64,000 nucleotides of DNA from assembly GCA_963514005.1 (NCBI GenBank), contig OY740808.1, forward strand, positions 13,144,001 to 13,208,000, given 5' to 3'. The notes under the pieces were generated by a model. The model ran no database searches. It was not told where the DNA came from and saw only the letters and a list, made by a program, of their open reading frames with translations. Each line of letters starts with the position of its first letter. The stretch's first letter is position 1. The DNA comes from Raja brachyura. Taxonomy: Eukaryota. The position numbers and the translations under genes are program-made. Shown here one piece after another: positions 7,600 through 62,000 of the stretch.

Positions 7600-9090
7600 A
7601 CTCCCTCATAAGGCTCACACCAGCCCCACACTGCCCACTTCTCTCTTCCCCTGCCTCACAATGCCTGCTTCTATGTCCTTCCCAAAATCCACAAACAGGG
7701 CTGCCCTGACAGACCCATTGTTCCTGCCTACTATGGACCTACCAAACTCATCTCCAAATACTTTGATTCCACCCTATCTCCCCCAACCCCTTTGTTCAGT
7801 CCATTCTGACTTACAGCTAAGACACCTCACTCGCCTTTCAACTCTTCAATAACTTACTGTTTCCTAGCCCCAGGATCTTATCCTAACCATGGATGTCCAG
7901 TCCTTTTACATTTCCATCTTCCACCAGGAAGATCTCCAGGTCCTCCAGTTCCTCCTAGAACAGAAGCCTAATCCATTTCCCTCCACTAACACTCTTCTCC
8001 ATCTGGTGGAACGTCCTCTCCCTCCACTCACTTTCTCCAAGTTTAAGGTGTAGCCAACAGGGACCAGACTTTCGACTGATGTCTACTACAAACCTACCAA
8101 CTCCCTCAGTTATCTGGACTGCACTTCCTCCCACCCTGCCTCTTACAAAGGCGCGATTCCCTACCCTCAAGTTGGTCTCCACCACACCTGCACGCAAAAT
8201 GAGCGTTCCATTGTAGGACATCTGAGATGTCCTCCTTCTGTAGTAAACATAGTTTTCCCCTGCTGCAATAGATGGACCCCTCGCCTACGTCTCTTTAGTG
8301 TCCTGTAGTTCTGCTTCCTGCCCCCAGGCGGGAAGTGACAGTTCCGCTGGTTCTCAACTTTCACCCCAGAGGCTTCCACATTCAACACATCATCCTCCAA
8401 CATTTCCATCACCTCCAATGTGATCCCAGCACCAGTCGCATCTTCCCATCCAACTTTCTGCCTTACACAGATTTCACTCCCTCTGCAACTCCTTGGTTGA
8501 CTTATGCCTTCCCACCTAAACCACCGCCTCCACAGGTACTTTCCCCTGCGTCTGCATGAGATGTAACACCTGTCTCTATACCTCCTTCCTCACCTCCATC
8601 CATGGACCCCTGTAGTCCAGATGAGGCAGAGGTTCACGTGCACCTCACCTACCCTCATTTACTGCATGCAGTACATCAGTGAAACCAAGTGTAGACTCAT
8701 GTCAAGACCTGCAGGATCTCCCCGGTTGCTATCCATTTTAACTCCTCCTCACATTCCCATACTTACCTTTCCATCTTGGGCCTCCTCCATTGCCAGAGTA
8801 AGGCCACATGCAAACTGGATGAACAACACCTCATATTCCACTTGGGTAGCTTACAACCCAATGGTAGATATAGAATACCTCCAGTGTTATGTAACTACAT
8901 AACCCTCCTCCTCTTCCCCCATATAAACCCCTCTCCCCTGTGCTCCACCTGGACTCGCACCTATTTCTCCCCTCCTCCCCTTCCACCTACATTCCTTTCT
9001 CCAGTGTCACAATTTGTAACTCTTCAATCCTTTTGTCTCACACCTATCTTTTCATCTCTGGACCTTGTCCAAACATTAGCCTATCTTTAG
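7600..9090 (+). mobile_element. Degenerate Neptune-like Penelope-like element (RT + GIY-YIG remnants)
   Basis: [35 protein letters not shown]...CNTC Cys linker, RQRFTCTS..LIYC, KLDEQHLIFHLGSLQPNG; frameshifted. Confidence 0.8.
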
Positions 9091-11299
9091 GGCTACTTAT
9101 TGTTGGTTTCTCATTTTAATCCTTTATTTCTAAATATAATGTTTATTTTTTATTTCTGTATACAGATTTAATCTAGTATATTTTTTGTAAAATTGCTCAT
9201 TGTTCAAAAATATGGGAGTCCTCTGCAACACTCGCTGTCTACAATGCAACACCTTACAAAATCACTTACTTTTCCTCTTCCACGATAAGCTTGGTTCCTT
9301 GTATCCTGGTGTGGCACAAGTAGGATTTCTTCCAACCGTGCAATAAAGTGGACAATGTTTTTATTTACTTGGTCTTTAGTGTATAGCATTACTATTCGTG
9401 TAAAGTTACCACTTCTCGACAAAACCCTTATTTGTGACTTTCTGATAAATGTAAAGAGAATGTTCAGCATAATGGAACCAACTTTAGTGGTGTTGAATCT
9501 AACCGAAGTAACAACTGGGAAGGGTAGCTCTCGGCAGTCTACTTGACCATTTAGTGTTGCAATGAATAGTTTAATACATTATGGAGCTTCACATATACAT
9601 TACTCACAAAATGGTGATATCTGTTGTTACTCATGGAATGGAATGCAGATGAAGGATGGGGTGATCAAGTGGGTGTGGCATTAAATATGTAACATTTAAT
9701 TAGTTGCAACACTATGACATCAGTAACTACTCTGTGTCAGTATGTGGTATGCCAGTGATGTTATTGTATTCCAGTCATTGCCATTTTATTGTTTTCCAGT
9801 CATCTGCCATTTATCGGAGCAGATTCTGAAAATATCATTAATGTTATTGACTGAATTGCTAGGACATTTTGTTTTCAATTTTAGATGCTCAGAATTGCCT
9901 TTTTGCGTGTTTTGGTTGTCATAGCAACAGAAATGTGCGTACACAGTATGTCATGCTTAGATAATATATGAGTGTTTTGGACTAATTGCTAGAAAATATC
10001 ACTGGAGTCTTTTATATTTTTACGTACGCAGTACAGTTGAATTAAGCAGTAAACCAAATGGAAAGTTTAGTTAGTATCTTCTAACAAGCTGCTGCAGCTA
10101 ATTATTACAAAAACATTAAGAAATGTTACCCAGATTTATGTGGCATTCTAATCTTTTAATTCAGTCACATGTGTATAATCTAATTAAAAATTGGACAGCC
10201 TTAATTATCAGATTACACACCTGCACTCTTTTCTCTTCACTTCACCTCTAGCCTTTGTTCTATATCCATCCAGCTGCCAATCACCCAACCTCACCAGAGT
10301 ATGCTATGACTTATAAGTTCTTGCCACACCCCCTTGCCTTCACCTCTCTTTACCAGCAGTCTTCTCTGTAGTTGATCAGTCTGAAGAAGGTTCTAGACCT
10401 CGAACATTGACCTCGATTCTTGAACCAATCTGCACAACCCTAATCCTTTCTCGGCAAGGGCCATGTCTTGTCTACCATGGGCTTGTTTTCTAATTGTGTT
10501 TTACACTAACGTCTTAGTTTTTACACAATCTTTTCTTTTCCATGTCTTGAAGAATTTACGTGTGAATTTTGTATAATTTATGTTTCTGTGTGTTGACAGA
10601 GTTTACGTAATGTGATGTTGCAAGATACAAGCAAGATTTGTATTGTATCTGTACCTTACCATACTTGTGCATTTTACATTAAAATCAACTTAACTTCGCT
10701 AATCCTGAGATTACTATTTAAGAAATCCTGCTTTTTAAACCATCTGCCTAACTCCCTAAACTCACTTTGCAAGAATGCAAGAGCAAAAGAGCAAGAGGAG
10801 GCCACCAGGTCCCTCAATCTAAGCCCACCATTCAATATTGTCACACCTGATCTATGCCGGCCTCAACTTCTCTACCATGCCTGTTCCCCATAACCCTTAA
10901 TTCCTCTTTCAAATATTTATCTGTCTCCAGGTAAGGTGCTGTTTATTACTTTTTTCTAGGTGCAACCAGTGCCAGGTTCATATCCCCCTCCCCCCTTTAA
11001 TGTAAACAGATTCCAGATTGTACCATGCTTTAGCCCTCTCTCTGAGCTCTGTGGGGGGGGAGGGAGGGGTAACCTATATTCTAGAGCTGTGAACCCCATT
11101 CTTACATATATGAATGTATAGAAGAATGCTGTTAATGACATGCCTAATCATCAAATAATTAATTATCTTTAATTGATGTGAAATCAATTTCATTGGCATT
11201 ATTTTCTTCTCAGGTTCTGTTCAGATGATGATCGTTACAGAGTCATATAGAAAGTATTCAGCCTAATATGTGCATTCTGTTTATTTACACTATTCCTCT

Positions 11300-15245: not shown

Positions 15246-15729
15246 GTAAGTATCCATTTCTACCAGGCAATAACAGGCTAGAATCTCTTGACAATGGAAA
15301 CACATTGCTATATGGAACAAAAATAATAGTTGTATTCTTTAAGGAATCTAGGAAGATTGTCAAAGGGCTACCAATGAAGCAAGATTTTAAATGATAAATT
15401 ACCCCCCCATTTTCATGCAATTAAATGTAAACTAATTGGTATCTGAATGTCATATACATAGAAATGTTCTGCTGGTTCCCTTTTGAATATACAAAATTTA
15501 TGAATACTTAAAAGTCATTAGACAGAGAACTTGAACAGTTCGCGTCAAATCCACTGACAGCAAATCTACCTGACTGATAGCTGAACATTCTTCTGAGATT
15601 AAACTGCTGCTTCCAAATTGTGCCATGCAACATTTCCTTGATTATGTGAAGACAGGTTGTTGAGTAGTTCCCCCCCCCCCCCCCCCCCCAGCTTTTATTT
15701 TAGGATCACCAAGAAAATAATGCCGCAAA

Positions 15730-16165
15730 AGAACCTCCTCATCGGCTTGGCGATTGTTTCGCCGAACACCTCCGCTCGGTCTGCACTAACCAACCTGATC
15801 TCCCGGTGGCTCAGCACTTCAACTCCCCCTCCCATTCCGAATCCGACCTCTCTGACCTGGGCCTCCATGGCCAGACTGATGGAAGGGCCACCGGAAATTG
15901 GAGGAGCAGCACCTCATGTTCCGCTTGGGCAGTCTGCACCCTAGCGGCATAAACATTGAATTCACCAATTTCCGGTAGCCCTTGCTGTCTCCTCCCCTTC
16001 TCAGCTCTCCCTCAGCCCTCGGGCTCCTCCTCTTCTTTTTTCCTTTCTTCTCCCCCCCCCCCCCACCCATCCTACATCAGTCTGAAGAAGGGTTTCGGCC
16101 CGAAACGTTTCCTTCGCACCATAGATGCTGCTGCACCCGCTGAGTTTCTCCATCACTTTTGTCAA
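15730..16165 (+). mobile_element. PLE 3' end: GIY-YIG C-terminus plus terminal repeat with hammerhead core
   Basis: RLGDCFAEHLRSV...DLPVAQHFNSPSHSESDL...RKLEEQHLMFRLGSLHPSGINIEF; ctgaaga-agggtttcggccc-gaaacgtt at 16082-16109. Confidence 0.85.
16082..16109 (+). ncRNA. Minimal type I hammerhead ribozyme core (PLE-associated)
   Basis: CUGAAGA-A-[GGGU UUCG GCCC]-GAAA-CGUU; activity untested. Confidence 0.6.
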
Positions 16166-16757
16166 CCTCCTCATACCTACCTCTTGACCATGACCCCACA
16201 GTCAAACACCAGGCTATTGTCTCCCAGACAGTCACTGATCAGATCGCTTCCAGTGACCTCCCCTTATAGTTCCCCAACTGTGCACCACCTGTATTTATCT
16301 CTTTTCCAAAATAGACAATCCTGACTGCTCTGTTAGACTCGTTGTTTCTGCTTGGTCCACCTCACCAAAAATCCTCTCCAAATACCTTGATTATATTTGT
16401 CCTCCCGGTCATTTGTCCTGACTTGTAGGGGAGCATATCCTCCGTTTGTTCCATATTCATGGGTCATTACATAAAATAATTAGATCATTTTATTGAGGTT
16501 ACACGGGTAAAACTTCAGCGATGCAAATAATATCAGCAATACTAGAAATGCACACACCAGGTCTGTCAACAGGTGAAATAAAACCTCTATTAAAGCTATT
16601 CACAACATGAGTCAGCATTGGGATTCTTTTTGCTTTCACACAATCATTGTATTAAGCCAGCCTTTATGGTTAGTTATTCTTTGTGTCAACTGCAGCATCT
16701 GGTATTGTATAGAGAATACTGGATGGGTCGCAATGAGATGGCAGAAATCATATATCA

Positions 16758-17834
16758 TTGCAGTATAATGTGGATAAATGTGAGGTTGCAGTATAATGTG
16801 GATAAATGTGAGGTTATCCACTTTGGTGGCAAAAATAGGAAAACCGACTACTATCTAAATGGTGGCCGATTAGGAAAAGGGGAGATGCAGCGCGACCTGG
16901 GTGTCATGGTACACCAGTCATTGAAAGTAGGCATGCAGGTACAGCAGGCAGTGAAGAAAGCCAATGGTATGTTAGCTTTCATAGCAAAAGGATTTGAGTA
17001 TAGGAGCAGGGAGGTTCTACTTCAGTTGTATAGGGTCTTGGTGAGGCCACACCTGGAGTATTGCGTACAGTTCTGGTCTCCAAATCTGAGGAAGGACATT
17101 ATTGCCATAGAGGGAGTGCAGCGAAGGTTCACCAGACTGATTCCTGGGATGTCAGGACTGTCTTATGAACAAAGACTGCATAGACTCGGTTTATATTCTC
17201 TAGAATTTAGGAGATTGAGAGGGGATCTTATAGAAACTTACAAGATTCTTAAGGGTTACACAAAAAGCTGGAGAAACTCAGCGGGTGCAGCAGCATCTAA
17301 GGAGTGAAGGAGATAGGCGACGTTTCGGGTCGAGACCCTTCTTCAGACCCGACCCGAAACGTCGCCTATCTCCTTCACTCCTTAGATGCTGCTGCACCCG
17401 CTGAGTTTCTCCAGCTTTTTGTGTAACCCTCGATTCTTCAGCATCTGCAGTTCCTTCTTTAACACAAGATTCTTAAGGGGTTGGACAGGCTAGATGCAGG
17501 AAGATTGTTCCCGATGTTGGGGAGGTCCAGGACAAGGGGTCACAGCTTAAGGATAAGGGGGAAATCCTTTAGTACCGAGATGAGAAAGAATTTTTTCACA
17601 CAGAGAGTGGTGGGTCTCTGGAACTCTCTGGCACAGAGGGTAGTTGAGGCCAGTTCATTGAATATATTTAAGAGGGAGTTAGATGTGGCCCTTGTGGCTA
17701 AGGGGATCAGAGGGTATGGAGAGAAGGCAGGTACGGGATACTGAGTTGGATGATCAGCCATGATCATATTGAATGGCGGTGCAGGCTCGAAGGGCCGAAT
17801 GGCCTACTCCTGCACCTAATTTCTATGTTTCTAT
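16758..17834 (+). mobile_element. Young 5'-truncated CR1 LINE, subfamily B, interrupted by a hairpin PLE mini-element
   Basis: ORF2 C-terminus YNVDKCEVIHFG...RDLGVMVHQSLK...; resumes at 17464 after the insertion; TTTCTATG tail. Confidence 0.95.
17252..17463 (+). mobile_element. Palindromic non-autonomous PLE terminal-repeat insertion with hammerhead core
   Basis: Perfect 81-bp inverted arms 17252-17332/17350-17430; 33-nt tail 17431-17463; TSD acaagattcttaaggg 17240-17255/17464-17479; HHR core on - strand 17319-17346. Confidence 0.9.
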
Positions 17835-31600: not shown

Positions 31601-32666
31601 AAATGGGATTTAACTGATTTTCCTTCAGCCTGCAACTGCAGCTGTCTTCATTGTTCCACAGCATTGTTTATGTCACCGAGATATCTTATTAAGGTTTGAG
31701 TTTTGATGGTTCTCATTTAATGAGCCTCGTGAACAAATATTGATTGGTCATGGGAGTTTTTGCTATCTTCTGTTGTAACAGAGCTTCACCTCCACCCTGT
31801 AGAATCAGGGAAGCCATTCAGACCCATAAATTCTAAAAGCTGGCAGGATTATGAAGCTGATCCACAGGAGACCAATTATACTGTTGTTTTAATTCATTTA
31901 CAATTTGGCTATTAACATTAAACCTTCATTCACAGAAGAGGATAATGTTACTGAGTTCCTCCCTTTCCTTGACGCATCTTTCACAGAAATTGGAAGGTGG
32001 TGCATTCCAGACATTCTGTGAAAGGAAGCACATTATTGCCACTGTTCTGTCTTGTCTCGTTGAGCAAAACAATTGTTTCACATCCACTGATTAAAACTTT
32101 AATTTTCTTGAAAATAGGCGCCTAAAGAAATAGTTTTGCATCAATCAGGAACAATTGGAACCTTGAAATTAACTTGACGGAATGCAAGCACATTTTTTGT
32201 AATATTTCTTAATTCAACCTTTCAAGCCCAATATCATTCTTGTGCATATGTGCTCGACATCCAAGGATGTTGTTTAGTTTATTTTGGAGGTATAACATTG
32301 AAACGTGCCCTTCAGCCCTTGACTCCACACTGACCATCAACCACCCTTCAACAATAGTTCCATGTTATCTTACTTTCCTCTCCTTTCCTTACACATTTGA
32401 GGCAACTTTACAGAGCCCAATTAACCTGAAAACCTTTGGGATATGGGAGTGTAATATGTTACACAAGGGAGATTCAGCATTTTTGAGGTGCAGTATGCAA
32501 AACAAATTAAAAAAATCAACAGTTAGAGGCCAAGCAAAGCACTGTTCGACCCGAGCATAAGCTTCTCAGGTTCTTCCTTCCAACATTCATGTTCACATTT
32601 TTGAATATATTTTATACATGTACACTTTTTTCAGTGCTTTGATCACAGTAAGTACCTAATCACTGT

Positions 32667-33605
32667 TTAAGAAAGAACAGCAGATGCTGGAAAAATCGAA
32701 GGTGGACAAAAATGCTGGAGAAACTCAGTGGGTGAGGCAACATCTATGGAGCGAAGGAATAGGCAACATTTTGGGTTGAGACCCTTCTTCAGACTGATGT
32801 TGAGGGGGTGGGGGTGGGAAAAAGAAAGGAAGAGATGGAGACAGTAGGCTGTGGGAGATGCGAAGGGGAGGGGAAGGAGGGAGAAAGCAAGGACTAACTG
32901 AAACTGGAGAAGTCAATGTTCATACTGCCTGGGTGTAAATTACCCAAGCAAAATATGAGGCGCTGCTCCTCCAATTTGCGGTGGGACTCACTGTGGCCAT
33001 GGAGGAGGCCCAGGACAGAAAGGTCGGATTCGGAATGGGAAGGGGAGTTGAAGTGCTGAGCCACCGGGAGATCAGGTTGGTTAATACGAACTGAGCTGAG
33101 GTGTTGGGCGAAGTGATTGCCAAGCCTGCGCACCGATGTAGAGCAATTGACACCTGGAACAGCGGATGCAATAGATGAGGCTGGAGGAGGTGCAGGTGAA
33201 CCTCTGCCTCACCTGGAAAGACTGCTTGGGTCCTTGGATGGAGTCGAGGGGGGAGGTAAAGTGACAAATGTTAGCATTTCCTGCAATTGCAAGGGAAAGT
33301 ACCAGGGGAAGGGGTGGTTTGGGTGGGAAGGGATGAATTGACCAGGGAGTTACGGAGGCAGCAGTTTCTGCAGAAGGCTGACGGGAGGAGATTTAGCCAG
33401 TGGTGGGATCCCGTTGGAAATGGCAAAAATGTCAAAGGATTATATTTTGTATGTGATGGCTGGTAGGGTGGAAGGTGAGGACAAGGGGGACTTGTTACGA
33501 GTGGGGGGATAGGGAGTGAGAGCGGAGCTACGGGATATAGAGGAGACCCTGGTGAGAGCCTCATCTATAGTCGAAGAGGGGAACCCCCGTCCCCTAAAGA
33601 ATGAC
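32667..33605 (-). mobile_element. 5'-truncated Neptune-like PLE (Cys linker, GIY-YIG, terminal repeat with tail)
   Basis: GTFPCNCRKC..., RRLGNHFAQHL...DLPVAQHFNSPSHSESDLSVLGL...RKLEEQRLIF.LG.LHP; terminal repeat 32667-32795 with decayed HHR core. Confidence 0.88.
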
Positions 33606-35346: not shown

Positions 35347-37478
35347 GTAACTAAGTAAGTAAGTAAGTTTATTGGCCAAGTATTCACATACAAGGAATTT
35401 GCCTTGGTGCTCCGCCCACAAGTAACAACATGACGTACAGTGACAGTTACGAATGACTCAGAAAACACTAAACATTAATAATAATAAAATATTAATGTTA
35501 AAACACCATTGATCAAGCATGTGAACCAACAAAATACCAGATCAAAGGGAGGCTACAGATTTTTGGCTGTTGAGTAGAGCAACTACTCGTGGATAAAAAC
35601 TGTTTTTATGTCTGGCTGTGGCAGCTTTGACAATCCGCAGTCGCCTTCCAGAGGGAAGTGATTCAAAGAGTTTGTGGCCAGGGTGAGAGGGGTCAGAGAT
35701 GATCTTGCCCGCTCGCTTCCTGGCCCTTGCAGTGTACAGTTCATCAGTGGAGGGAAGGTTGCTGCTAATAACCTTCTCTGCTGATCGGACGATTCACTAC
35801 AGCATCCAGGTGTCGTGCTTGGTGGCTGAGCCAAACCAGACCATGATGGAGAAGGTGGGAAAAGACTCTACGATGGCCGTGTAGAGTTGGACCATCATTG
35901 CCTGTGGCAGATTGTGCATCCTCAGCTGCCGTAGGAAGTACATCCTATGTTGTGCCTTTTTGACTGTGGAGTCGATGGTAGCCCCCCACTTAAGGTAGCA
36001 ATGTTACAAAATTTTGAGATTTAAAAAATCAAGTCTGCAATTTATCCCATCAGATAAAGCATAAAAAGAAGTTTAATTTGACACCTAATTTACTTTCATA
36101 TCTTCAGTATTAAGAAAGTTATGGCCATTTTCATACTCGGAAATTAGCAGTTTGTTCCCCATTGCCTTTCAATTGACTTAACTCAACAGCTGTGATCTGG
36201 AAAAGTCAAAAGCCCATAACTTTCTTAAAAATTAAGAGAACTCAATGAAATTTTCAGTTATTATAGATTGAAGCATTCTGAAACAAATATGAAACAATCT
36301 TACTTGGATGACCTGAAATTAAAGCATATAATTAGTTAGTTATCTAATTGTAGCTAATTACAAAATTCAATGAGTAGATCTAAACATCTATCCATTTCTT
36401 AAGAAAAGATAAACTTTTTTTAAATTGCCTAAGTGTCCAAATAACATTCACATAATAATCCACAATATAACATAATTTTTAAATCTCATTTTTATGAATT
36501 TCTGGGCCAAATGGAAGGAATTTAGTGTTCAATGCCTGTAAATTAATGGCCATTTAAATCAACTAGTGAGTGGGTTTTAGTGGAATGCGGTGGATTGGAA
36601 CGTTGCGGTTAGCGGTGAAGTCGGGGGGGAAAATACTGTTTGTTCATAGATTTTTTGGGACCCCATTTCGCAACATAAAAATATTATTAAAGCCTCCTGA
36701 AAAAACAACTTTTAATATAAAAATAAACTATTTACCTTTTTTTCTCCCCTACGGAAAATCCTTCCGGTTGTTGGTTCTCACGGCTTTTGAAGGTGATTTT
36801 TAAATTACTCTAGTTAACAAATAATTTAGAGTAATTTAAAAATACCTTCATGAGTGTAAAGTCGGAACGATTTTTCTTCCCCGACGAAATCGCCCGACAT
36901 TGATCGATTTTCCAGGTCTGTTGAAAATCGGCACTTTAAGCCCGCCCCCCTCTGAAAGGCGCCAAAGTCGCGCACACGGGGAGCGGCAGAACTGCAGCGC
37001 TGCTCAAGGTAAGTTTTGCAACATACCTACTTAAGGTCCTTGGAGATGATGGTTCCCAGGAACTTAAAAGACTCCACAGATGTGATTGTGGTGTTGTTGA
37101 TGGTGAGTGGGGTGAGGGGAGGGGGAGCTCTCCTAAAGTCTACAATCAATTCCACTGTCTTAAGAGCATTGAGCTCTAGGTTGTTGCTACAGCACCAAGA
37201 CGCCAGCTGCGACACTTCCTGTCTAGGCAGATTCCTCCCCATCCTGGATCAGTCCAATCAGGGTTGTGTCGTCCACAAACTTGAGAAGCTTGACAGAGGT
37301 GTCTGTGGAGGTGCAGCCGTTGGTGTAGAGAGAGTAGAGGATAGGAGAGAGTATGCAGCCTTGTGGTGCTCCTATGCTGAGCGTTTGCGGGTCCGAGATG
37401 TGCTTTCCCAGCCTCACATGCTGCTTCCTGTCTGTCAGGAAGTTGGTGATCCACTGACAGAGGGGCTCAGGCACAGTC
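35347..37478 (-). mobile_element. 5'-truncated Rex1/Babar-type LINE (RT C-terminus), interrupted by the 1.03-kb TIR element
   Basis: LCQWITNFLTDRKQHVRLG...GAPQGCILSPILYSLYT...KFVDDTT...WCCSNNLELNALKTVELIVDFRR...FKFLG; aataaa followed by (CTTA)n tail. Confidence 0.85.
35996..37029. mobile_element. Non-autonomous DNA transposon (~1034 bp), copy 1, superfamily unassigned
   Basis: Imperfect 16-bp TIR TAGCAATGTTACAAAA / TTTTGCAACATACCTA; 7-bp TSD cttaagg (35989-35995, 37030-37036); second copy at 54516-55547. Confidence 0.88.
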
Positions 37479-40903: not shown

Positions 40904-41565
40904 GCTCAGAATGTTATAAGTGTTTGAACTTCTCTCCACTGGATCTGTGATTTATCAGTCTTTGAGTATGTAAGAGATAAAGATTGCAGGACTTCTAAAT
41001 ACTACGTTCAGGCGAAATATGGAGCAGATGTTTCTTACTAGTCTTATTGAGATATCTTAATCATACATTATTGGATGGATACAGTGCCCTCCATAATGTT
41101 TGGGCCAAAGACCCATCATTTATTTATTCGCCTCTGTTCTCCACAATTTGGAATTTGTAATAGAAAAAAATCACATGTGGTTAAAGTGCACATTGTTAGA
41201 TTTTATTTGGTCTCACCATGTAGAAATTACAAGTGTGTTTATACATGCCCCCCCCCCCCCATTTCAGGCCACCATAGTGTTTGGGACACATGGCTTCACA
41301 GCTGTTTGTAACTGTTCAGGTGTGTATAATTGCCTCATTCATGCAGGTATAAGAGAGCTCTCAGCACCTAGTCTGTCCCCCAGTCTTTCCATCACCTTTG
41401 GAAACCTTTATTGCTGTTTATCAACATGAGGACCAAAGTTGTGCCAATGAAAGTCAAATAAACCATTTTGAGACTGAGAAACAAGAATAAAAATGTTAGA
41501 GACATCAGCCAAACCTTAGGCTTACCACAAATCAACTGTTTGGAACATTATTAAGAAGAAAGAGC

Positions 41566-43211
41566 GGCTTGCAAAAGTTTTCATACCCCTTGAACTTTTC
41601 CACATTTTGTCACGTTACAACCACAAACGTAAATGTATTTAATTGGGATTTTATGTGATAGACCAACACAAAGTGGAGCATAATTGTGAAGTGGAAGGAA
41701 AATCATACATGGTTTTCAAATTTTTTTACAAATAAAAAACTGAAAAGTGTGGCGTGCAAAATTATTCAGCCCCCTTTACTCTGATACCCCTAAATAAAAT
41801 CCAGTGCAACCAATTGCCTTCAGAAGTCATCTAATTAGTAAATAGAGTCCACTTGTGTGTAATCTAATCTCAGTATAAGTACAGCTGTTCTGTGAAGGCC
41901 TCAGAGGTTTGTTAGAGAACATTAGTGAACAAACAGCATCATGAAGCCCAAGGAACACACCAGACAGGTCAGGGATAAAATTGTGGATAAGTTTAAAGCA
42001 GGGTTAGGTTATTAAAAAAATCCCAAGCTTTGAACATATCATGGAGCACTGTTCAATCCATCATCCAAAAATGGAAAGAGTATGGCACAACTGCAAACCT
42101 ACCAAGACATGGCCGTCCACCTAAACTGACAGGCCGGGCAAGGAGAGCATTGATCAGAGAAGCAGCCAAGAGGCCCATGGTAACTCTGGAGGAGCTGCAG
42201 AGATCCACAGCTCAGGTGGGAGAATCTGCCCACAGGACAACTATTAGTCATGCACTCCACAAATCAGGCCTTTATGGAAGAGTGGCAAGAAGAAAGCCAT
42301 TGTTGAAACAAAGCCATAAGAAGTCCCGTTTGGAGTTTGCCACAAGCCATGTGGGGGACACAGCAAACATGTGGAGGAAGGTGCTCTGGTCTGATGAAAA
42401 ATTGAAGTTTTTGGCCTAATTGCAAAACGCTATGTGTGGCGGAAAACTAACACTGCACATCACCCAGAACACACCATCCCCACTGTGAAACATGGTGGTG
42501 GCAGCATCATGCTGTGGGGATGCTTTTCTTCAGCAGGGACAGGGAAGCTGGTCAGAGTTGATGGGAAAATGGATGGAGCCAAATACAGGGAAATCTTGTT
42601 AAAGAAGGAACTGCAGATGCTGGAGAATCGAGGGTTACACAAAAAGCTGGAGAAACTCAGCGGGTGCAGCAGCATCTAAGGAGCGAAGGAGATAGGCGAC
42701 GTTTCGGGTCGAGACCCTTCAGTCTGAAGAAGGGTCTCGACCCGAAACGTCGCCTATCTCCTTCGCTCCTTAGATGCTGCTGCACCCGCTGAGTTTCTCC
42801 AGCTTTTTGTGTAACCCTACAGGGAAATCTTGCTGTTCACAGATGCTCTCCATCCAATCTGACTGAGCTTGAGCTATTTTGCAGAGAAGAATGGGCAAAC
42901 ATTTCAGTCTCTAGATGTGCAAAGCTGGTAGAGACATACCCCAAAAGACTTGCAGCTGTAATTGCAGCGAAAGGTGGTTCTACAAAGTATTGAGTCAGGG
43001 GGGCTGAATACTTTTGCACGCCACACTTTTCAGTTTTTTATTTGTAATAAAATTTGGAAACCATGTATCATTTTCCTTCCACTTCACAATTATGCACCAC
43101 TTTGTGTTGGTCTATCACATAAAATCCCAATAAAATCCATTTATGTTTGTGGTTGTAACGTGACAAAATGTGGAAAAGTTCAAAGGGTATGAATATTTTT
43201 GCAAGCCACTG
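41566..43211 (+). mobile_element. Inner Tc1 transposon, Passport-like, with ~210-bp IR/DR-type TIRs; transposase pseudogene 41941-42993
   Basis: MKPKEHTRQVRDK...KWKEYGTTANLPRHGRPPKL...KVLWSDE...[17 protein letters not shown]...YPKRLAAVIAAKGGSTKY*; right end GCAAGCCACTG|TA, left end lacks TACAGT; stop codon, frameshift and catalytic-region deletion. Confidence 0.92.
42599..42818 (-). mobile_element. Second palindromic PLE terminal-repeat insertion with hammerhead core
   Basis: Perfect 90-bp arms 42631-42720/42729-42818; tail 42598-42630; TSD tacagggaaatcttg 42584-42598/42818-42832; HHR core on + strand 42724-42751. Confidence 0.9.
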
Positions 43212-45619
43212 TAAGCTAAAGATGGCTGCAATGCATTCCTGGCAGAGCATCACCAGGGAAGACACCCAGCAACTGATGATGTCCATGAACCACAGACTTC
43301 AAGCAGCCATTGCAGGCAACAAAATAATAATGTAACTATTTTCATTTACATGACATTGCAGTGTCCCAAATATTATGGTGCCCTGAAATGGGGGGGATTA
43401 TGTATAAAAATGGCCTTTATTAAAATCTGACGTGCACTTTAACCACATGTTTTTTTTCTATTACAAATCTCAAATTGTGGAGCACAGGGGCAAATAAATA
43501 AATGATGGGTCTTCGTCCCAAACATTATGGAGGGCACTGTAAGTTATAATTTCAAGGACAATGCGGAATTCAAATATTGTGAACAGCGAGAAGGGCAATA
43601 ATAGAATTCAGGAGGCACAAACTCAAGCAGATGAAATATGGAGGGATGCTCTGCCGAACAAGATGGAGAAGGGATGGTATGAATTAAATGCGATAGTTTC
43701 AAAGTCTGAAAATTAAGCCGCAGAAGAAATGCTTGGCTTTGTAAGTAGAAATAAACAATAGTAGCGCAATTCTGGAAATCACACATCGGAACTTTGTCAA
43801 GGCCTTATAATGGTGTAGAAGAAAAATAAAAGTCTGATATCGTGGATTAGTGTTATTGTTTATGGATGACTTAAATTACGGGAAGAATCTGAAGAAACTC
43901 TGTTCTTTAAATAGAGCACTTTAAGGAAGATTTGATTGGGATATTTAAAATATTGAGGCATTTTGCTACAGTGAGTGAGAATGTAGTTGCAGTGGTAAAA
44001 TTGTTGACATTAGAAAACAAAGACAAATGGCAATGATCCGAAAAATAAAATCTCAGGAGAAACGATGTGGAATCTTAAATGCACTGACTGAATATTAGGT
44101 TAATCAAGTCCAATATCAGTGATCAAAATTTAATTGGAAAAAATACTTAAATTAAGAAAATGAAGTTATGGAGAAAAAGAATGACTGTAGGACTAATTAA
44201 ATTTATCAAAAGACAGGTATGCTGAACCAAATGGCTCGTAGCTATTCCATATAATTGTTTGATGATGGTAAAAATCACGTTAAAATGGTCTTTAGTAGCT
44301 TTGAAACCGTGAAGTCATGTATAAAATTATTTTTTTATTTTCTGAAATGTAATCCAATGGTGACTTGACAATGAAAAGTGTGGTCTCCATTATTAATCAA
44401 TAATCATATTATATGAAACGTAGTTTTTTCTGAAAATTACACAGATACAAATAAATTAGTGAAGCAGTCATACTCGAGCGTGATTGCCTGATAATAGATT
44501 AAAGATTTAATATCTCTGAATAGCAATAATTCTGTTAGGACTACCTGTTTTCCATATAATTCTTGTAACAGCTTTTATATTTTTCCATATTAGTAACTGC
44601 TTTGTTTCTTGGCTCTGCTTTTATTTAAGTGGAATTTTCCAAAGCATTGACTTCCATGTGCAAATGATATTGCGTGCTGACTAAGTCACAGCAACAATCT
44701 CTTCCCATCTGTGCCAAAGCATGTTTCTTTCTGTTTTGTGTTACTGAAAGAGATTCAGTCAGGCACGTAGTGCATTAAAAAAGTTCAACACATTAAAACA
44801 CCTGGCAAAGTGAAGAATAATATTCCATTGCTGATGTACGATTTCCATTCCTCTTAAGTCAAAGTGACTAAAATCACAGGGAATCTGAATTGGAATGAAT
44901 TTTCAAGTTTTTTGATGACTCATTACTTTCATAATTACCACACATTGTTGGCACTCCTTTTAGTTAGCGTATAGAAATGAAGCCAAAGCATTCACATCAA
45001 CTGAACTTCCACTGGGGAAAAAGACGAGAAAGCTAAACAGATTAGGGCTATTTATTTATTCCCAACTTCTCAAGAATTTAGATACTTCAGCATCTTGCAT
45101 TAGTATTTGCATAGCTATTAATATCTCATGACAAATTTTTATTCCTCAATAGCTATTAATAGCATGATACATTTTTATTCCTGAATTTAAAAAAATAATA
45201 ATAAATTTTTAGATGTTGGCCTGGAAGAAGTCAACGCTTGTTCACTGAATTTGGAGAATTTTGTAGAGATAACATTGGTATTTTTACAATGCTTTTTGGT
45301 GCCTGCTACAGGAAGTCTGGGTCTCAGTAGCAAAAAGCGGACAGGGATCAATGCCGCCCAGTTGACCATATGTTCTCTACAAGGTCTGATCTTGTATTGG
45401 GTCTTGTACAAAGATAGATTACTTCCTAACAGAAAATTATTTCTACATGTCATCTCTTGCTCCATGATGCATTGCCAAAATGTTTCTACAATTATACTCC
45501 AGGTTTATTCAAACTTTCACCTGTCCAACATACTACTAGTACAAATAACATCCTACAGCTGCATGATAAGATGAACACAAGAAAACATAGTGTATCTTTT
45601 TTCTGTTTAACTTTCATAG

Positions 45620-45709: not shown

Positions 45710-47299
45710 GTGAGTTTATTGCTTAATACTTTTGAAATGTGACTTGCACAATAGTACTCACTGATTGACACCAATTCAAAATCAGTATTACAAGATTAAT
45801 TTTGTTGGATTTGCTAATGTCAGTAAGAGAAAAGGACAGATCATATTTTACAACCTGGAAGAGTTTTAAAAATATATTTTCTCAGCGTATCCAAAAGCTA
45901 AGCATCTGCGGTCCTTTGTAGTACAGAATCTGATAATTCTCCGAATGACCAAATTCCTTGTGACTAAGTGTTCCTTATCCCAAGGGTATGTTCCTTGTTC
46001 TGGATATTTAGTGCTGTCTAGCCTTAATTCCTTAATTGAGTGAACACAGTTCCATGGTATAAAACTGCTTGCAATTTGACAATCTTTCTCACTTAATCAC
46101 TGGATCATAGGCACTGAAATTGGTAACGCATGACAAACGTGCTTTTGGAAAGACTTTCACCTTAAATTGTCCAATTTGAGCAAACTGATGCCAAAGCAAA
46201 TGGAAAATTATCGGCATCTAACATGTTGTATTTGCATTGAGCGTGTTGCATTGTGATACTGGCCATTAAATCTGTAAATTTGCCAATGTCAGCATCACTT
46301 ATGCCCAGTTAATAGTCAGTGTTGGTAAACGGAGCTCCACATTACATCGAATGTGACAATTGTGTGGGGAGATCTCCTTGAGGACAGTAGTGACTGTCAT
46401 TGCTGTACTGCTTAACCAGATGTCCAGGCCATTATTTTGTACACCGCAAAAATGTACTCATTTTAAAACTAGCAGTCGAACTGTAAATAAAATATATTTA
46501 ATCCTGCAACAATCGTAGGTTCCTGACATTTTCCCTTATTGCTGATAGGCATGTGATGACTGCAAAGCCCAGGCAGAAATCAAGTTTTTACCTTTCTGGA
46601 TTTTTTTTAAATTATAGACATTGTTATGCAGAGTTAGAGGAGCAAATAGGTGAGACCATTTCAGACAAATGGCAGAACTAAAGAATTAGTGAAGAAATCA
46701 CATGGTCTGGCTGGATCAATTGAATCTCAGCAAAGACTTCATTCTAATATAACAGTCATTCAATTTAATGCCCATATTTGATATTTTTAATCCAATTTCT
46801 CAATTTTATCCATTGCTTATATTTAGCCATTCAGTTACTCTGGGGGAGGGACATTTGTTTCTTTCCTCTGCAGTATAGACTGCTTGGTCATCTTAGTCTC
46901 CTTGTTCCCTTTGTTTGAATCTCTCCTCCCTAAAAACATCTGAGTGCCATTTTCTTCCTTAGACATGGATTAGTATATAATTAATCATTACAAAACAGTA
47001 CTTAAGATTGTTTTTATATCAACCTTAAGACATTTGACTGAATACCATTCCGGGTACAACTTCGACTGCTGTTACACATCAAATCCAACTACTGTGATAT
47101 GTACGAAATAAAAAAGTTGTTAGTATTAAAATTAAAGCAAAAATGTTATGCTGCACAATTTCAATTACTAGATCCTAAATATTAGTAGTAATAGATCTCA
47201 CTAGTTGGATTACGATATTTTACAGTTGGTAACTTGAATGTGCATCCAGGTAATGATCTTCAGTTTTAGATGATTAATAAAGTAGTGCTATTTGCTAAA

Positions 47300-49900
47300 A
47301 TTATACAAAATGAATGACTAGGAAATGCAATCAATCCAATTAAACCTAGTCCATAAAGCTGTAATATTCGTCTGTCTCCCTAGGAGAGAGAAAAAATAAT
47401 ACCTTTTGACAATTTATGAAAATACCCATGGCATTTCAATCTAATCCTTTTGGTCAATCTAACAGGCCCTTAACAAAGTTCAGTGTCACATGATACAGAT
47501 GTTAAGTCTGTAGTAAATAATCTTTTGGGATCATCCCAATCGGATGATCAGGATAGCACTTCGTTGGCCAACAAGAGTTTAAAACTAAGGAGCTGGAGCA
47601 ATTAAACATCTTATCATAATTTCTTGGTACAATTTCCAACAGGGTTATGTTCCTGAAAACTGTTTGTAACCAAAATAGTATCCAAGTGGAAATGTGGCTG
47701 CCCGGCACTATATTTAAATAAAGGTATGGGCAAACCAAGGGGAAACTTGCAGTTAAATCAGGGTTTTTAACACAACCATTCAGCTATTGCCATGAACCAA
47801 GCTCTCGTCAGGCAGAAGATGCCTGCTGCCCTGCAGTTGCTGGCAAATTCATCCCAAACCCTTGTTCGTATTACGGGCTGTCCAGATGTCAGGTGTTTGT
47901 CACCTGGGGTATACCTGCACTTTAATCTTAAATGCAGCTTTTGTATCACCAGTTTGAATATCCTGTTAATAAGGAATTAAGTATAGATGAAGAAGTTATA
48001 GTTAAAGGTCCATTGTTACCACCAGACTCTTCAGGGTGATGTTTTAACTTTGAAGTCAACCTATTTGTCCATTTTTTTTCTCTATTTAAAATCCTATCTA
48101 ATATCTCTTCCAACTGATCAATTACTAACCACCCTCTTTTGCAAAGACAACTAGAGGGTACTTAATCAGCATCTCCAATTTCTATCCTGCCTCCATGCAA
48201 ATTTGCCTCAACAACTGTACAACTTTTTAAAATAATGGAATGGTCCCTTGTTATTTTGTTTTACCCATTTGATCGATCCCTTATTAACTGATTTATAGAC
48301 CAGTTAATAATTTGATATTTTCAGTTTGGATTTTTCTTTGTCCCTTCTCATTGATACATTTAGCCTGATTATTTTATGATTAATATCACCCAATTGCCCC
48401 CCAATGCAACATCTGCCTATTTCCTCCAGAGAGAGCATCAAACATTCTTCCTTCAGTATTGGCAAGAAATGTTTCGAGACTAGGACTTATTTATTCCAAT
48501 TCCAGCTCCTCTTCTCTGGAGTCCATGTTAGATTAATTGAGAGCCCCACTAATTCTATAGTTCTGCCATTTATCTGAAATGGCCTCACCTATTTGCTTTA
48601 CTAACTCTGCATAACTATGTCTATATTTTTTTTTTAATTACCAGAAAGGTAAAAACTTGATTTCTGCCTGGGCTTTGAAATCTCTACTATTACTATTTAT
48701 ATCATATCTACGATGTCTCTCAGCTCTCCTGGGTTTTAGATTCCTTGCATATCCCTGCTGAATACCTTGCAACATCTGCATATCTTAACTTAACAATGCC
48801 AGGTGAATGATATCTAACTACCTGTCAGTAGCCAGTGGTATACCTGTGGTAGTGTTAATAGTTTTCACACTACTACCTCCTAAATAGTCACAGTAGACAA
48901 ACTAAAATTTGAAGTGCTTGTTCCTTATTTGTCTTACATAGCTGCATAATGCCTGCGTACATCACATCAATTGGTAATCTTTTACAGAGACAAGTGAGTT
49001 AACATAACATTTCTCATCTTCGTGCCTAGCTTTTCCGTCAGTATCCAATTGAAATTTGGATATCTATATAATTGAATATGCATATTTTTGACAGCTTTTA
49101 TCGTATTTTCCCTCAGCACTTGTCTCTCTTTTGAAAATTGGCCCTAACAGTCTGACAGGTTTAAAGACTGAATTGTAAGATTATGTCTCAATTTGGTTGT
49201 GGTTTCCTGGATCACTTGCTCATCTCGATGTCCATCATCAGGTCAAGACACAAAAACTGGAAATAGCGCTAAAGAGTTTAAACCATCCAAGTGATGCACT
49301 TTATTTTTTATTTTCAATGGCCTTCCTAATCAATATATTCTGAATCCTTAAGCTTTTGAATAGCTTCATCATACTGTTTTGAAGCTTCATTCATTTTGTT
49401 ATTGATGAATTCTAGCAACTCTTCTGGTACAATAATTGAGCTTGTATTTCCTTGAAGCCAGGTCCAAGCCAGGCACAATCCTTATTTAACAAAATCTAAG
49501 GATATCAGGCTCTTCCTCTAATTTAAATAAATTACTTTGTCCTATTTATTTGATCTAAATTCCCAGCTCATGTGAACCTTTTTGGTTCATGTGCATCCTT
49601 GCAACTGTTCCATAAAATTGTTGACTTCACATTTGCATGCTCTACAAATTCCCACATCCAAATCATGATCAATTGTAATGTACGGCACTATTCTCAATAG
49701 AGACCCCTACTCCTGCCCCAGATAGATCTTCTGTTTATTATGACTACTGCCCTGGACACGTCATTCATTTTTCCATTCCCACACCCATCTGTCTTATATT
49801 CACACATATCCCAATTTACTTAAATGTTCTCTACATTGTTTTATGGACTTATTGGGACGTTATAGCTTCATTTCCAGCTATCGCAAAAGTAGGGAAATGG
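47300..49900 (-). mobile_element. Long, very old CR1-type LINE remnants
   Basis: Scattered CR1-like motifs on the minus strand (GPDDGHR..., NLSDC.G, IGY...); heavily decayed; bounds approximate. Confidence 0.4.
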
Positions 49901-50921: not shown

Positions 50922-51378
50922 GTGTAAATATGAACTCCAGATGCTCGTTTAAACCAAAGATAGTCACAAAAAGCTGGAGTAACTCAGTGGGACAGGCAGC
51001 ATCCCTGCAAAGAAGCAATGGGTGACGTTTCGTGTTGAGACCCTTCTTCAGTCTAGTTAGGGATAAGGGAAACGAGAGATATAGACGGTGATGTGAAGAG
51101 GTAATGAACAATGAATGAAAGATATGCAAAAATGTAACGATGATAAAGAAAACAAGCCACAGTAAGCTGGTTTAGGGCAAAAATGAGAAGCTAGTGCGAC
51201 TTGGGTGGGGGAGGGATAGAGAGAGAGGGAATGCTGGGGCTACCAGCATTGACAGAAATCAATACTCGTACCACTGACCTGTAAACTGCCCAAGCGAAAT
51301 ATGAGATGCTGTTCCTCCAATTTCCATTTAACCTCACTCTGACAATGGAGGAGACCGAGGACAGAAAGGTATGTGTAG
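50922..51378 (-). mobile_element. Short 5'-truncated PLE (GIY-YIG C-terminus + terminal repeat with tail)
   Basis: SVLGLLHCQSEVKWKLEEQHLIFRLGSLQ; HHR-like core 51024-51051; 16-bp TSD acaatgaatagttgct at 50906-50921 and 51379-51394. Confidence 0.85.
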
Positions 51379-54515: not shown

Positions 54516-55547
54516 TGGCAATGTTACAAAATTTTGAGATTTTAAAAATCAAGTCTGCAATTTATCCCATCAGATAAAGCATAAAAAGAAGTTTAATTTG
54601 ACACCTAATTCACTTTTATATCTTCAGTATTAACAAGGTTTTGGCCATTTTCATACTCAGAAATTAGCATCTTGTTCCCCATTGCCTTTCAATTGACTTA
54701 ACACAAAAGCTGTGATCTAGGACAGTCAAAAGCCCATAACTTTCTTAAAAATTAAGAGAACTCAATGAAATGTTCAGTTATTATAGATTGAAGCATTATG
54801 AAACAAATATGAAACAATATTACTTGGATGACCTGAAATTAAAGCATATAATTAGTTAGTTACCTAATTGTAGCTAATTACAAAATTCAATTACCAGATC
54901 TAAACATCTATCCATTTGTTAAGAAAAGATAAACTTTTTTAAATTGCCTAAGTGTCCAAATAACATTCACACAATAATTCACAATATAACATGATTTTTA
55001 AATCTCATTTTCATGAATTTATAGACCAAATGGAAGAAATTTGGTGTCTAATTCCTGTAAATTAATGGCCATTTAAATCAACTAGCGAGTGGGTTTTAGT
55101 GGAATGCAGTGGATTAGAACGTTGCAGTTTGCGGTGAAGTCGGCATGAAAAGCACTGCCGGTTCATATATTTGTTTTTGTCCCCATTTCGCAACATGAAA
55201 ATGTGATTAAAGCCTTCCTAAAAACCAAGTTTTAATGTAAAAATAAACTGCACTTTATTTTCTCCCCTACGTAAAATCCTTCCCATTGTCGGCGCACACG
55301 GCTTGAGAAGATGATTTTTAAATTACTCTAGTTAATAAATAATCTAGCGTAATTAAAAAATACCTTCATGAATGAAATGTCGGAGCGATTTTTCTTCAGC
55401 AACGAAATCGCCCGACATGGATCGATTTGCCCTGTCTGCAGAAAAACGGCACTTTAAACCCGCCCCCCTCTGAAAGGCGCCAAAGTCACGCACACGGGGA
55501 GCGGCAGAACTCCAGCGCTGCTCAAGGTAAGTTTTGTAACATACCTA
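54516..55547. mobile_element. Non-autonomous DNA transposon (~1032 bp), copy 2
   Basis: TGGCAATGTTACAAAA ... TTTTGTAACATACCTA; 7-bp TSD cattcta (54509-54515, 55548-55554); colinear with 35996-37029. Confidence 0.88.
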
Positions 55548-55789
55548 CATTCTAGTCCTAATGGGGTATGAGTTGAATGCTCACTTCATTGACCCTGCTC
55601 TTCTTTGTTTCCTTGTGTTACCCAAGAATAAAATAGAACACATCTCATTAACTTTATCTATCCTTGTCATAGTCCTCAATGGTTCTTTACAAAATCAGAG
55701 TTACATACTAATCATATTTCAACGTTTCCACTGCTGTCATCACCAATGCTTTCCATTTGCAATATTTATGAGCTGATTACAGTTACTAG

Positions 55790-59030: not shown

Positions 59031-62000
59031 CAATATGTCAATGGCACTTTGTGACATGTACCAAGGTGTATTGAAATTCATTTTTGCATGCAGTTCAGTA
59101 CAAGTATCTATACGTAGGCATTGTAAAGAGATTGAATCAAAACAACTGTACTTTGAGAAGATAGTAAGATTGATTAAATTAACGGGTTACGCACAGGTGC
59201 AGGAGGCAGCCCCGACATTCTCATTGTTGTAGTGGAGAAATATTTATGTAATGGTGCCGAGGTATGTTTGGAATAAGGACTGTTCAACAAAACCAAGAAA
59301 AGGGCTCATGCGAGTGCCCATGTCTACAATGTTAACTTGAAGAAGTGAGAGGAGTTAATAATAATCCAAAGAATGGTTTTGACCCAAAACATCATCTATT
59401 CATTCCCTCCAGAGATACTCCCTCAGCGCCAAGTTACTCAAGTACGTTGTGTTTTAATCATATTGTTGCTTGTTCCTGCAACGCCCCAATCTTATTTCCC
59501 ATGTTCTGTGCACATCTATCCAAGTCTATTCATCTTAAATTGCCTTGACTTTTTTCCCTGTCTGATCCCTCTTGTTTATGAAATATCCTCCATTCCAATT
59601 CTGTGTTTTTTCCAGTCCCTTTTTCCCAGGCGCATTTTGTCTCCTCTAATTCTTCATCCAGGGCCCTGACCTCTGCAAATGATTTGTGGAAAGATGTCTA
59701 ACCAAGCCAATCGGTTCTGATGGATTCAGTGGGGGTGGGGTTGTTTTATGTCCAAATTGTTCTCTCTGTTGTGAAACAAATGTTTGAGCACCCTCTAGTC
59801 TGTGCCTTATTGTCAGGAGGGTATCTGCCTTGAGACTAATAGTGTCCTGCAATGACTGAATGACAAATGTAAGCTTAATATGTTGTTGCACTATCATCCT
59901 TCAACTGTAATGAGTACAAAAAAGGGGCTGTACAAACAGATGAATCAAGCAGCTAGAATATTGCTGAAGGATTAAATACGGGCAAATTGATTATATGATT
60001 GAATTGCTGAAAGCGAAGTGGTTCTTGCTGATAACTTTTGGACAGCATATGTTAGGTGCAAGTGCAGCAGCACCAGTACAGAGTAGACATAATGATAGGA
60101 TATTTATAACTAACCTCTTTGTTTTGCTTGTCTCCAGATGAACTTTGCAGTCCCTTAATAATCATACATCTTCCAGCAGCTGGTGCAGTGTTTATATAAA
60201 CCAGTCGAAAGTCAATCAGTGGATAAATAATGATTGGGAGATCTCAGAATAAATAGGTATAGATGAAAGCTATTTTCTTGAGGCAGAAAGGAAGGCCAGC
60301 TAAAGCTAGAGTTCCCTGGCTGACTAAAAATATATAGATTAAAGGTGCTGCAAAAACAGATAACCCAGAACTATAGAAACCACCCTATTTCTTTAATTAC
60401 AGGCACAAAAATGTTCAAGATATCTGCCACTCCAATTCCAGTATATTGGTCATTTGGAAATTAATCCACTCCATTACTGACAAGCTGCCTACCAATTGAA
60501 AACTCAGGAAATACCCTTCTGAAATTTCTCCACCTCTCTTCACGAAGCTCAGCAACTTTACATTTTTGGCAACGTTAAAGTTAAAAAAAAATTGTTATTA
60601 TAATTTATGAAAGTTGTGAATTCATTAACTTGCTCGTCACATGATAAATTATGCTTGTGGTAACCTGATGTTTGATGTTTTTTGTGAAGGCTCCTTGCCC
60701 CCTCACTAAGTGACAGATATGGGGCAGACCCTCTCGGTAGTGCCTAGATTGTGTAGATTATATCTGCATTCAGATTGATACTGGTATTGACCGATAGGTA
60801 AATGTAAGCTTAAAGCATTATGGCTGATTATTCTTCAGTCTTAATGTGCACGGGAAAGGAAAAATACAATCCTTCACAACTAGGAAGTTTTAAGTAGCCA
60901 GCACATTATTGAAGGATGAAATACTGCAGCATTGATTACATGATTGAATTGCTGGAAGTGAGAGGTAGCTCATGATCAGAACTCTGGATGGCATCAGTCA
61001 GCTGCGAATGATGCAGCAGCTTGTGCAGACCAGAGGCAAAACTTGTATATCGTGTAGCTAACCTCTGCTGTGTTGTCTGTAGGTAGAATTTGCAGCAACT
61101 TAGCAATAAGCTGCTTTTGGCAGATGGTGCAGAGCTGAGGGTTATTTAGATTGACCCAGCAACATCATGTAAAATGTGCACAAGCTTGAAAGCTGTGCTT
61201 TTCAGCTCTTAACAGGTGCTACTGAGAGATTGAAATATGCATTCATTTAAACAAAACCATACACAACATGCAGAGTAGCAGTTGAAAGCTTGATGGGTAC
61301 CAGAACGGATGAAATGGTAGCAGAAAGGAAGTTGTGTTGTCTTCCCTGTATTCAGTAGCCCTCTCTGATAAAGGTGAAAAGTCTGGACTTATTTGAAAGA
61401 GAAAATGGCCATAACTCTTGAAATACTAAATAACAGGACATTATTTTTTCTTCTGTGGTGATAAAACATTACAACCCTTGTTTCTGTTCATAGTACATTG
61501 AAAATTGGTTGCAAATGCAAATATTGAAATCATTGATGCTGACAGTGGTGATTTTTTTTTTAAATTACCCGTTTCTAAATTATTTCCCAAAAGATATTTC
61601 ACATAAAACAGTATGTTAAATGTAAGTGAAATAAATTAATAACATTGTGAATAACTCTTCGTTCAAGCATTTTTAAATTGTTGGAGGTTTATCATGAGAA
61701 TGTAAAATAATAAAAAATACACGATATGCCAGTCTGCATTTGAAAGGGAAACAACAGGTTAAAATTTTAGTGAAGCCTCTGGAGTCCCATGTCTTTGTGC
61801 CTTTAATCTCTCTTCAATTTCTCTATTGCTGACAAGATTGCTGTGCATTTCCGGTGTTTTATTTTTTTTATTGCAAGGAAAGGGTTGAGATTGTTTTTGT
61901 TTTAGATGAACCACGAGAACCTCGTATTGAAGGTCACCTTGCGACTAATGCAGTGAGTGAATGGTCTTACTGCACGTACTATGTACCGCACTATGTCTCA

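Follow-up and report, generated by a model that had tools for sequence, protein, structure and literature searches.

A 220-base hairpin inside a Tc1 transposon of Raja brachyura is a minimal insertion of a Penelope-like retrotransposon, probably formed by twin priming

A Tc1 transposon in the 64,000-nucleotide stretch of Raja brachyura DNA analysed here (the window) is interrupted by a hairpin that carries a hammerhead-like motif, a tail on one side and a short duplication around the whole. How is such a unit, with two inverted copies of one sequence in a single insertion, produced? An earlier sequence-only reading had taken it for the product of reverse transcription from the tail followed by an inverted template switch. 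Our results suggest a different route. With its 220 bases, the hairpin represents a minimal insertion from a very abundant, young Penelope-like retrotransposon, and the unit is composed of two head-to-head pLTR (pseudo-LTR) pieces of a Penelope-like element (PLE) of ~4 kb with reverse transcriptase (RT) and GIY-YIG domains.

The hairpin consists of two 90-nt arms (42631-42720 and 42729-42818) that are 100% complementary and separated by 8 nt. It is flanked by a 15-bp duplication (TSD), base 42818 being assignable either to the arm or to the TSD, and its tail is confined to one arm (Table 1). The insertion that the earlier reading had placed inside a Tc1 transposase, with the architecture of another copy in the window, was thereby reproduced in its arms, loop, tail and 15-bp TSD. 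All element positions below are counted from the predicted ribozyme cut between 42751 and 42752, with +1 at window position 42752. In this copy, it is the tail-less arm that extends further at the centre, and each arm holds sequence that is absent from the other. The 8-nt loop (42721-42728) falls mostly inside a palindrome of 13 nt with its centre at 42723. One reading of the junction is therefore a 3-nt slip of the commonest type in the samples described below, a perfect palindrome. We infer that the end of the tail (42599..42630) marks an outer RT start site and the outer end of the tail-less arm (42720..42818) an inner one.

Table 1. Coordinates of the hairpin insertion, its host transposon and the sister copy in the window.
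Feature	Position	Strand	Details
Left TIR of host Tc1	41563..41781	+	94% complementarity with 42992-43210; alignments with Tc1 relatives begin at 41563
5' part of decayed Tc1 transposase gene, interrupted by the insertion	41997..42598	+	PF01498, open frames
Left TSD copy, 15 bp	42584..42598	+	Duplication search
PLE tail, ~+68..+99 from predicted ribozyme cut	42599..42630	-	One arm only
Tailed arm, pLTR -23 to +67, truncated inside hammerhead core	42631..42720	-	
Palindromic head-to-head junction (13 nt, centre 42723)	42717..42729	.	Sequence
Tail-less arm, pLTR -32/-31 to +66/+67	42720..42818	+	
Minimal type-I hammerhead-like motif (predicted)	42722..42753	+	Core from 42724, 2-bp helix I
Right TSD copy	42818..42832	+	Last 3 bases double as microhomology of the 196-bp Tc1 deletion
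Right TIR of host Tc1	42992..43210	-	Inverted-repeat search
Sister hairpin insertion	17240..17479	+	TSD copies 17240-17255 and 17464-17479; inner arm ends at -30 (tail-less) and about -13 (tailed)

The host is a Tc1 element bounded by 219-nt TIRs. Its transposase HTH domain was matched by PF01498 (HTH_Tnp_Tc3_2) at 41997-42416 with an E-value of 1.4e-23, and the interrupted gene part is 94-96% identical to Tc1 relatives in the genome. After the target site, the other Tc1 copies read on differently. The host is devoid of 196 bp directly at the right, tail-less-side edge of the TSD, with the joint lying over three shared bases (42830-42832). None of the 39 closest Tc1 relatives gave a match across this joint; the size of 196 bp is derived from alignments of 11 of these relatives and one intact site. 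The deletion may have arisen during repair of the hairpin insertion. A second inverted-repeat pair (41080-41173 and 43448-43541; 94 nt, 91%) encloses the Tc1, which suggests that it sits inside another TIR transposon. Elsewhere in the window we observed another TIR-bounded element of about 2.1 kb (46558-46691 and 48547-48682) and a ~1-kb repeat in two copies with an internal palindrome (35998-37030 and 54518-55548).

The sister hairpin (17252-17463) lies in opposite orientation and presents 81-nt perfect arms and, as the sequence-only reading had stated, another junction and a duplication of its own, which is 16 bp long. Hairpins at one short site of an abundant LINE-like repeat were seen at this position (17200-17520) and at loci L051, L098, L100, L103 and L106, and their near-identical TSDs hint at a target preference with microhomology to both element ends.

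The arms belong to a much larger element. An exact 30-mer spanning the border between arm and tail was found in 17,781 copies in the 2.7-Gb genome, against 0 for the reversed control, and a 30-mer reading past the tail in 619 copies. Two loci found through the latter (L138 and L139) contain head-to-tail tandem units of about 3.95 and 4.04 kb, and the hairpin arms are the pLTR of this tandem element. The 774-aa frame of L139 matched RVT_1 (E 4e-4) and GIY-YIG (E 9e-4), both under the Pfam curated cut-offs, and contains the motifs YIDD, DKG and GxxMG, a CxxC within GIY-YIG and a CX2-5CxxC linker at residue 641. Such a linker between RT and endonuclease (EN) is given as a criterion of Neptune/Nematis in the available text of PMC8557442. 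The family combines the features of EN+ Penelope-like elements: RT with C-terminal GIY-YIG (from these weak Pfam matches), tandem pLTRs, an inverted 5'-truncated copy with a tail and a variable TSD. A sequence search of the PDB returned no match. Short head-to-tail tandems were also observed (L033/L118, L125-L127, L129, L131, L134, L135, L140 and L141), in which a variable piece of the element's 5' ORF region is joined to a pLTR, mostly from -34..-31 and from about -94 in L140 and L141. These tandems are likely template jumps after run-off, similar to retrozymes. Older and diverged copies of related Penelope-like elements are present in the window at 8524-9080, 10376-10412, 15700-16170, 32664-33220, 50968-51370 and 59361-59440, and several of them carry the same hammerhead-like core.

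The hammerhead-like ribozyme is a prediction from the sequence. Compared with the features described in the available sections of PMC4209133, the motif has the conserved core, helix II, a palindromic helix III stub and an NUH site. Helix I comprises 2 bp in 87 of 134 cores, whereas 4-6 bp would be expected of a minimal type-I hammerhead; the same source reports 2 bp in Penelope of D. virilis. An Rfam scan matched no hammerhead model and returned six weak matches, all under the gathering score, and the active hammerhead fold was not among the structures predicted for the monomer. The complete ribozyme core that had been claimed for the tail-less arm is thus present as a core, but with a helix I of 2 bp, without an Rfam match and with no active fold predicted for the monomer.

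We then analysed hairpins in three samples, all taken from the starts of contigs C1-C3, so that class frequencies apply to the samples and not to the whole genome. Sample A was query-selected and comprised 30 of the best 40 matches to the 220-mer, or 29 loci once the duplicate L025 was dropped. Sample B was selected on the tail and blind to the junction: among the first 100 listed matches of the border 30-mer, 99 were recovered, and these yielded 36 hairpins, 9 spaced head-to-head candidates, some of which are chance neighbours, and 54 copies without an inverted arm within 450 nt. With 36 hairpins among 99 tailed copies (tail of about 35 nt), extrapolation from this tail-selected sample gives ~6,500 hairpins in the genome. 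Sample C was blind and consisted of 100 stretches of 10 kb (1.0 Mb) from C1, C2 and C3, with arms required to be at least 90% identical over +1..+66. It contained 133 arm pieces, which formed 14 tail/tail-less pairs, 3 tail-less/tail-less pairs and no tail/tail pair; the 99 unpaired pieces were 29 tailed, 67 tail-less and 3 other. The hairpins of the tail/tail-less type in samples B and C are referred to below as unselected hairpins (n = 50).

The outer ends of the insertions are fixed, as the earlier reading had claimed from two copies. In sample B, the tail-less outer end was located at +60..+69 in 32 of 36 hairpins, and the tail ended mostly at +99..+103, centred on +101. TSDs of 10-20 bp, mostly 14-15 bp and of variable sequence, were identified in 42 of 50 tail/tail-less hairpins, which bears out independent insertions with TSDs of their own, and in 41 of 126 solo copies, a rate that may be underestimated since solo boundaries are less certain. 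A control with shifted boundaries gave TSDs in 0 of 82 cases, in line with the view that these are no chance rearrangements. Solo copies starting at the tail-less end had TSDs in 21 of 58 cases; against the 0/82 of the control, this indicates that +66 is a primary start site.

The two arms do not pair freely. Tail/tail hairpins were absent (0/53; 0/36 in the tail-selected sample and 0/17 in the blind one), and the pairing in the blind sample differed from independent draws (p = 0.0008). None of the 3 tail-less/tail-less pairs of sample C had a TSD. At the centre, the tail-less arm extended further in 26 hairpins (15 + 11) and the tailed arm in 5 (4 + 1; p = 0.0002), while the arms were equal within 2 nt in 19; the blind sample by itself showed the same direction (11 vs. 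1, p = 0.006). In most asymmetric hairpins the tail is thus on one arm and the centre sequence on the other. The tail-less arm also extended further at the centre in two long inverted copies with 15-bp TSDs (L054 and L102) and in L055 and L079, for which no TSD was found.

The inner ends cluster as well, away from the predicted cut. Plotting the ends relative to that cut, as the earlier reading had proposed, placed 40 of 67 short hairpin arm ends at -35..-26, together with 20 of 31 short solo ends. The clustering extends to tailed copies: among those reaching -26, 43 of 73 ended at -35..-26, against 11 of 30 ending within the following 100 nt. Ends within 5 nt of the cut were rare, with 5 of the 67 hairpin arm ends and 2 of the 31 solo ends (1/68 and 0/29, respectively, in the blind sample), and we rejected the cut as the site of the junction. 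In our best explanation, neither end of the insertion is set by ribozyme cleavage.

We next compared the junctions. The junction of the 42599..42818 copy was shared by 22 of the 29 loci in sample A. These loci represent four haplotype backgrounds, and both of their arms carry the variant; the remainder of the sample presented a flipped junction in four loci (L022-L024 and L030) and a third junction in three. The same junction was found in 0 of 50 unselected hairpins, where most junctions were unique. Recurrence in one sample and absence from the others suggest that junctions are hot spots and that no single master exists. The fold-back junction had been described as variable, and junctions were neither random nor one and the same. 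The tailed arm is 5'-truncated in the 42599..42818 copy as claimed, but the flipped loci show that either arm can be truncated. The commonest junction of sample B was a perfect palindrome centred on -29 (7/36), and perfect palindromes carried either centre base (4 vs. 3). A junction of -30/-13 was seen three times (L032, L190 and L239). Two neighbouring hairpins of one locus (L205:6966-7436 and 8473-8895) have the same unusual junction (-267/-32), one with a tail and one without, which suggests local re-copying of a hairpin; the recurrence at 22 loci could partly have the same cause. In one locus (L040; C1 about 1,207,500-1,207,900), both arms end at -31 and are separated by a 148-bp filler within one 15-bp TSD, and this filler is an inverted copy, at 98%, of flanking sequence a few hundred bases away. 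In individual copies, later deletions at the palindrome centre may have shaped the junction.

Subfamily variants agreed between the arms in 12 of the 21 informative cases and differed in the other 9, which suggests that some hairpins may use two RNAs, and in L163 the arms resemble two subfamilies. At the variant sites +14 and +16, the arms agreed in 7 of 9 cases (p = 7e-7); one dominant source locus would also give such concordance. The tail-less arm at first showed an excess of private mutations (44 vs. 18), which was set aside: the asymmetry was not replicated in the blind sample (7 vs. 9; query-selected, 17 vs. 10) and is not used here.

We propose that the hairpin is made by twin priming, with both 3' ends of a staggered cut priming reverse transcription and the resulting cDNAs being joined end to end, a reading to which we assign a probability of roughly 0.6. 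The GIY-YIG endonuclease of the element would cut both strands about 14-15 nt apart. The first 3'-OH would prime at the inner site (+66) and run to the end of the template near -30, which is likely the start of pLTR transcription. The second 3'-OH would then prime at the outer site (+101), where the same RNA would have remained single-stranded, and the second cDNA would displace the first and often stop earlier, assuming that the PLE RT is capable of strand displacement. The two cDNA 3' ends would finally be joined through microhomology or short filler, a step that a self-complementary 7-mer around -29 would favor. If +101 were primed first, access to +66 would be blocked and the product would be a solo tailed copy, such that tail/tail hairpins would not form. 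Two of our observations are expected under twin priming: TSDs are more frequent in hairpins than in solo copies if both overhangs serve as primers, and palindromes carry either centre base if two cDNA ends anneal.

The stop near -30 may have another cause. The sequence at -30 fits an initiator consensus. An internal pLTR promoter is described for Penelope in the available parts of PMC2377424 and PMC6765202. An extra G derived from a cap at the 5' end was not enriched in the two sets of ends (11/24, p = 0.20; 5/16, p = 0.68). Alternatively, the RT may stall at the 5' edge of the ribozyme. We also considered splicing at an acceptor-like site at -30 and rejected it as the cause of the stop, with no common upstream exon found and tandem junctions lacking a single donor. 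The region -60..-30 (e.g., L039:1385-1414) does present a pyrimidine tract and AG resembling a 3' splice site, as in Penelope of D. virilis, and a donor-like site lies ~30 nt past the tail; no spliced copies were seen.

The main competitor is a single fold-back, in which a cDNA started from the tail, or a self-primed antisense RNA as outlined in the available text of PMC3846280, folds near the ribozyme and copies itself, followed by trimming of the outer end at +66 and by later deletions at the unstable palindrome centre, which would make the junctions differ. Self-priming has been proposed there for head-to-head PLE palindromes, and it would account both for variants common to the two arms and for a perfect palindrome at -29 as the commonest junction. 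However, copying of this kind predicts that all sequence is found in the tailed arm, whereas the tail-less arm was longer in 26 of 31 asymmetric hairpins, and random deletion at the centre should favor neither arm. Each arm holds sequence missing from the other, which a single fold-back does not fit without extra deletions and which two primings can produce. The presence of both centre bases and the flank-derived filler of L040 also speak against it, and +66, rather than being a product of trimming, independently starts solo copies with TSDs. For these reasons the inverted template switch from the tail that the sequence-only reading had favored is not supported as the general route, and we consider a single fold-back unlikely. 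It is slightly less probable still that the two strands of one break are primed independently, not from two starts on one RNA but by a pair of ribonucleoproteins or by two RNAs that a hammerhead or protein dimer holds together. The discordant variants and the mixed arms of L163 agree with two RNAs, and PLE hammerheads are thought to act as dimers (available text of PMC4209133 and PMC6765202), but two independent primings offer no simple account of the absence of tail/tail hairpins or of the longer tail-less arm, and variants common to both arms are far above the expectation from independent draws.

The remaining explanations leave twin priming further ahead. Transcription or copying of one or a few master hairpins as a whole, as in a MITE- or SINE-like family, would explain the exact junction of the 22 query-selected loci, the threefold -30/-13 junction and the similar neighbours in L205, yet we regard it as improbable: the unselected hairpins lack that junction and mostly have unique ones, and the shared junction itself is spread over four haplotypes, whose variants are carried by both arms, and also exists flipped relative to the tail. 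The TSDs, being 10-20 bp long and of variable sequence, differ from the TA of Tc1-type elements. Diverse junctions and variable TSDs uphold the earlier view that this is not a MITE-like unit copied as a whole. Perfect inverted repeats are error-prone in assemblies, and inverted repeats of this perfection could raise suspicion of a fold-back artefact of assembly or sequencing. Locus-specific TSDs in 42 of 50 hairpins against 0 of 82 controls, private substitutions in the arms and the systematic asymmetry of the tail make such an artefact very improbable.

In LINE-1 twin priming, the RNA is primed again by the other target strand, and a microhomology-joined inversion results with the TSD kept; this second priming takes place upstream, on RNA not yet copied, which gives an inversion without duplication. 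In the Raja brachyura element, by contrast, it would take place at a fixed downstream site, and the first cDNA would be duplicated. The architecture itself is a known PLE feature and does not define a new kind of ribozyme element. An inverted pLTR, a one-sided tail and a TSD are described in the available parts of PMC3846280, PMC8557442 and PMC2377424, where EN+ PLEs likewise present an inverted 5'-truncated copy in head-to-head arrangement, a tail of 30-40 bp at one end, a TSD around the whole, a palindromic junction, tandem full-length copies and RT with C-terminal GIY-YIG. What differs here is that the hairpin insert is the pLTR only, about 220 bp long, in thousands of young copies, and these minimal copies make the rules countable. 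The counts of ends and arms disfavor the self-priming idea of PMC3846280, as far as its available text sets it out.

The closest experimental system is Poseidon_Ac, a PLE of the anole, for which both target strands are cut and extended in vitro, two internal RT start sites bound the tail, ribozyme cleavage is unnecessary and the protein is predicted to be a dimer (PMC11167929). Poseidon_Ac belongs to the Poseidon clade, whereas our element has the CX2-5CxxC linker of Neptune/Nematis. The available main text of that study draws no link from the two start sites to inverted insertions. The minimal hammerheads of metazoan PLEs, as described in accessible sections of PMC4209133, are alike in their core motifs, an extra nucleotide before helix II, a short helix I and a palindromic 4-mer in place of a helix III loop, and in Schistosoma they form opposite-strand pairs 100-700 bp apart; in our element, the 5' edge of helix I is where the arms end, away from a cut that is itself predicted. 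Non-LTR retrozymes (available text of bioRxiv 10.64898/2026.07.22.740005) are also short, non-coding PLE derivatives bearing hammerheads, but they are head-to-tail tandems with complete hammerheads, whereas the hairpin joins its two pieces head-to-head, has one of its cores truncated and seems to form anew with each insertion. Short head-to-tail tandems of the hairpin's own family exist elsewhere (e.g., L033 and L125-L127). Further PLE-related context is provided by the accessible part of PMC6155905. The origin of inverted pLTRs and one-sided tails in PLEs is stated to be unresolved in the available text of PMC8557442, PMC3846280 and PMC11167929. Our literature search, in which subscription papers and older reviews were poorly covered and a prior model may exist, found no proposal of twin priming for PLEs and no description of this Raja brachyura family; papers naming both "twin priming" and "Penelope" concern other topics in their available text.

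We tentatively suggest, as a possibility that falls somewhat short of even odds, that PLEs in general use a dedicated and ordered form of twin priming, in which a protein dimer would prime both target strands at a fixed pair of sites on a single RNA, the first cDNA would be displaced by the second, and the tail would serve as a landing pad for the second primer. If true, ordered twin priming would account at once for tail, inverted pLTR and TSD, and short hairpins would represent joined "strong-stop" cDNAs ending at the start of pLTR transcription. The absence of tail/tail hairpins, the longer tail-less arm, arms mostly from one source and the stop near -30 provide sharp predictions for the existing in vitro system, and thousands of young TSD-bounded events open the mechanism of PLE integration to direct tests. 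Finally, these insertions seed the genome with perfect palindromes of ~90 bp that could form cruciforms or double-stranded RNA.
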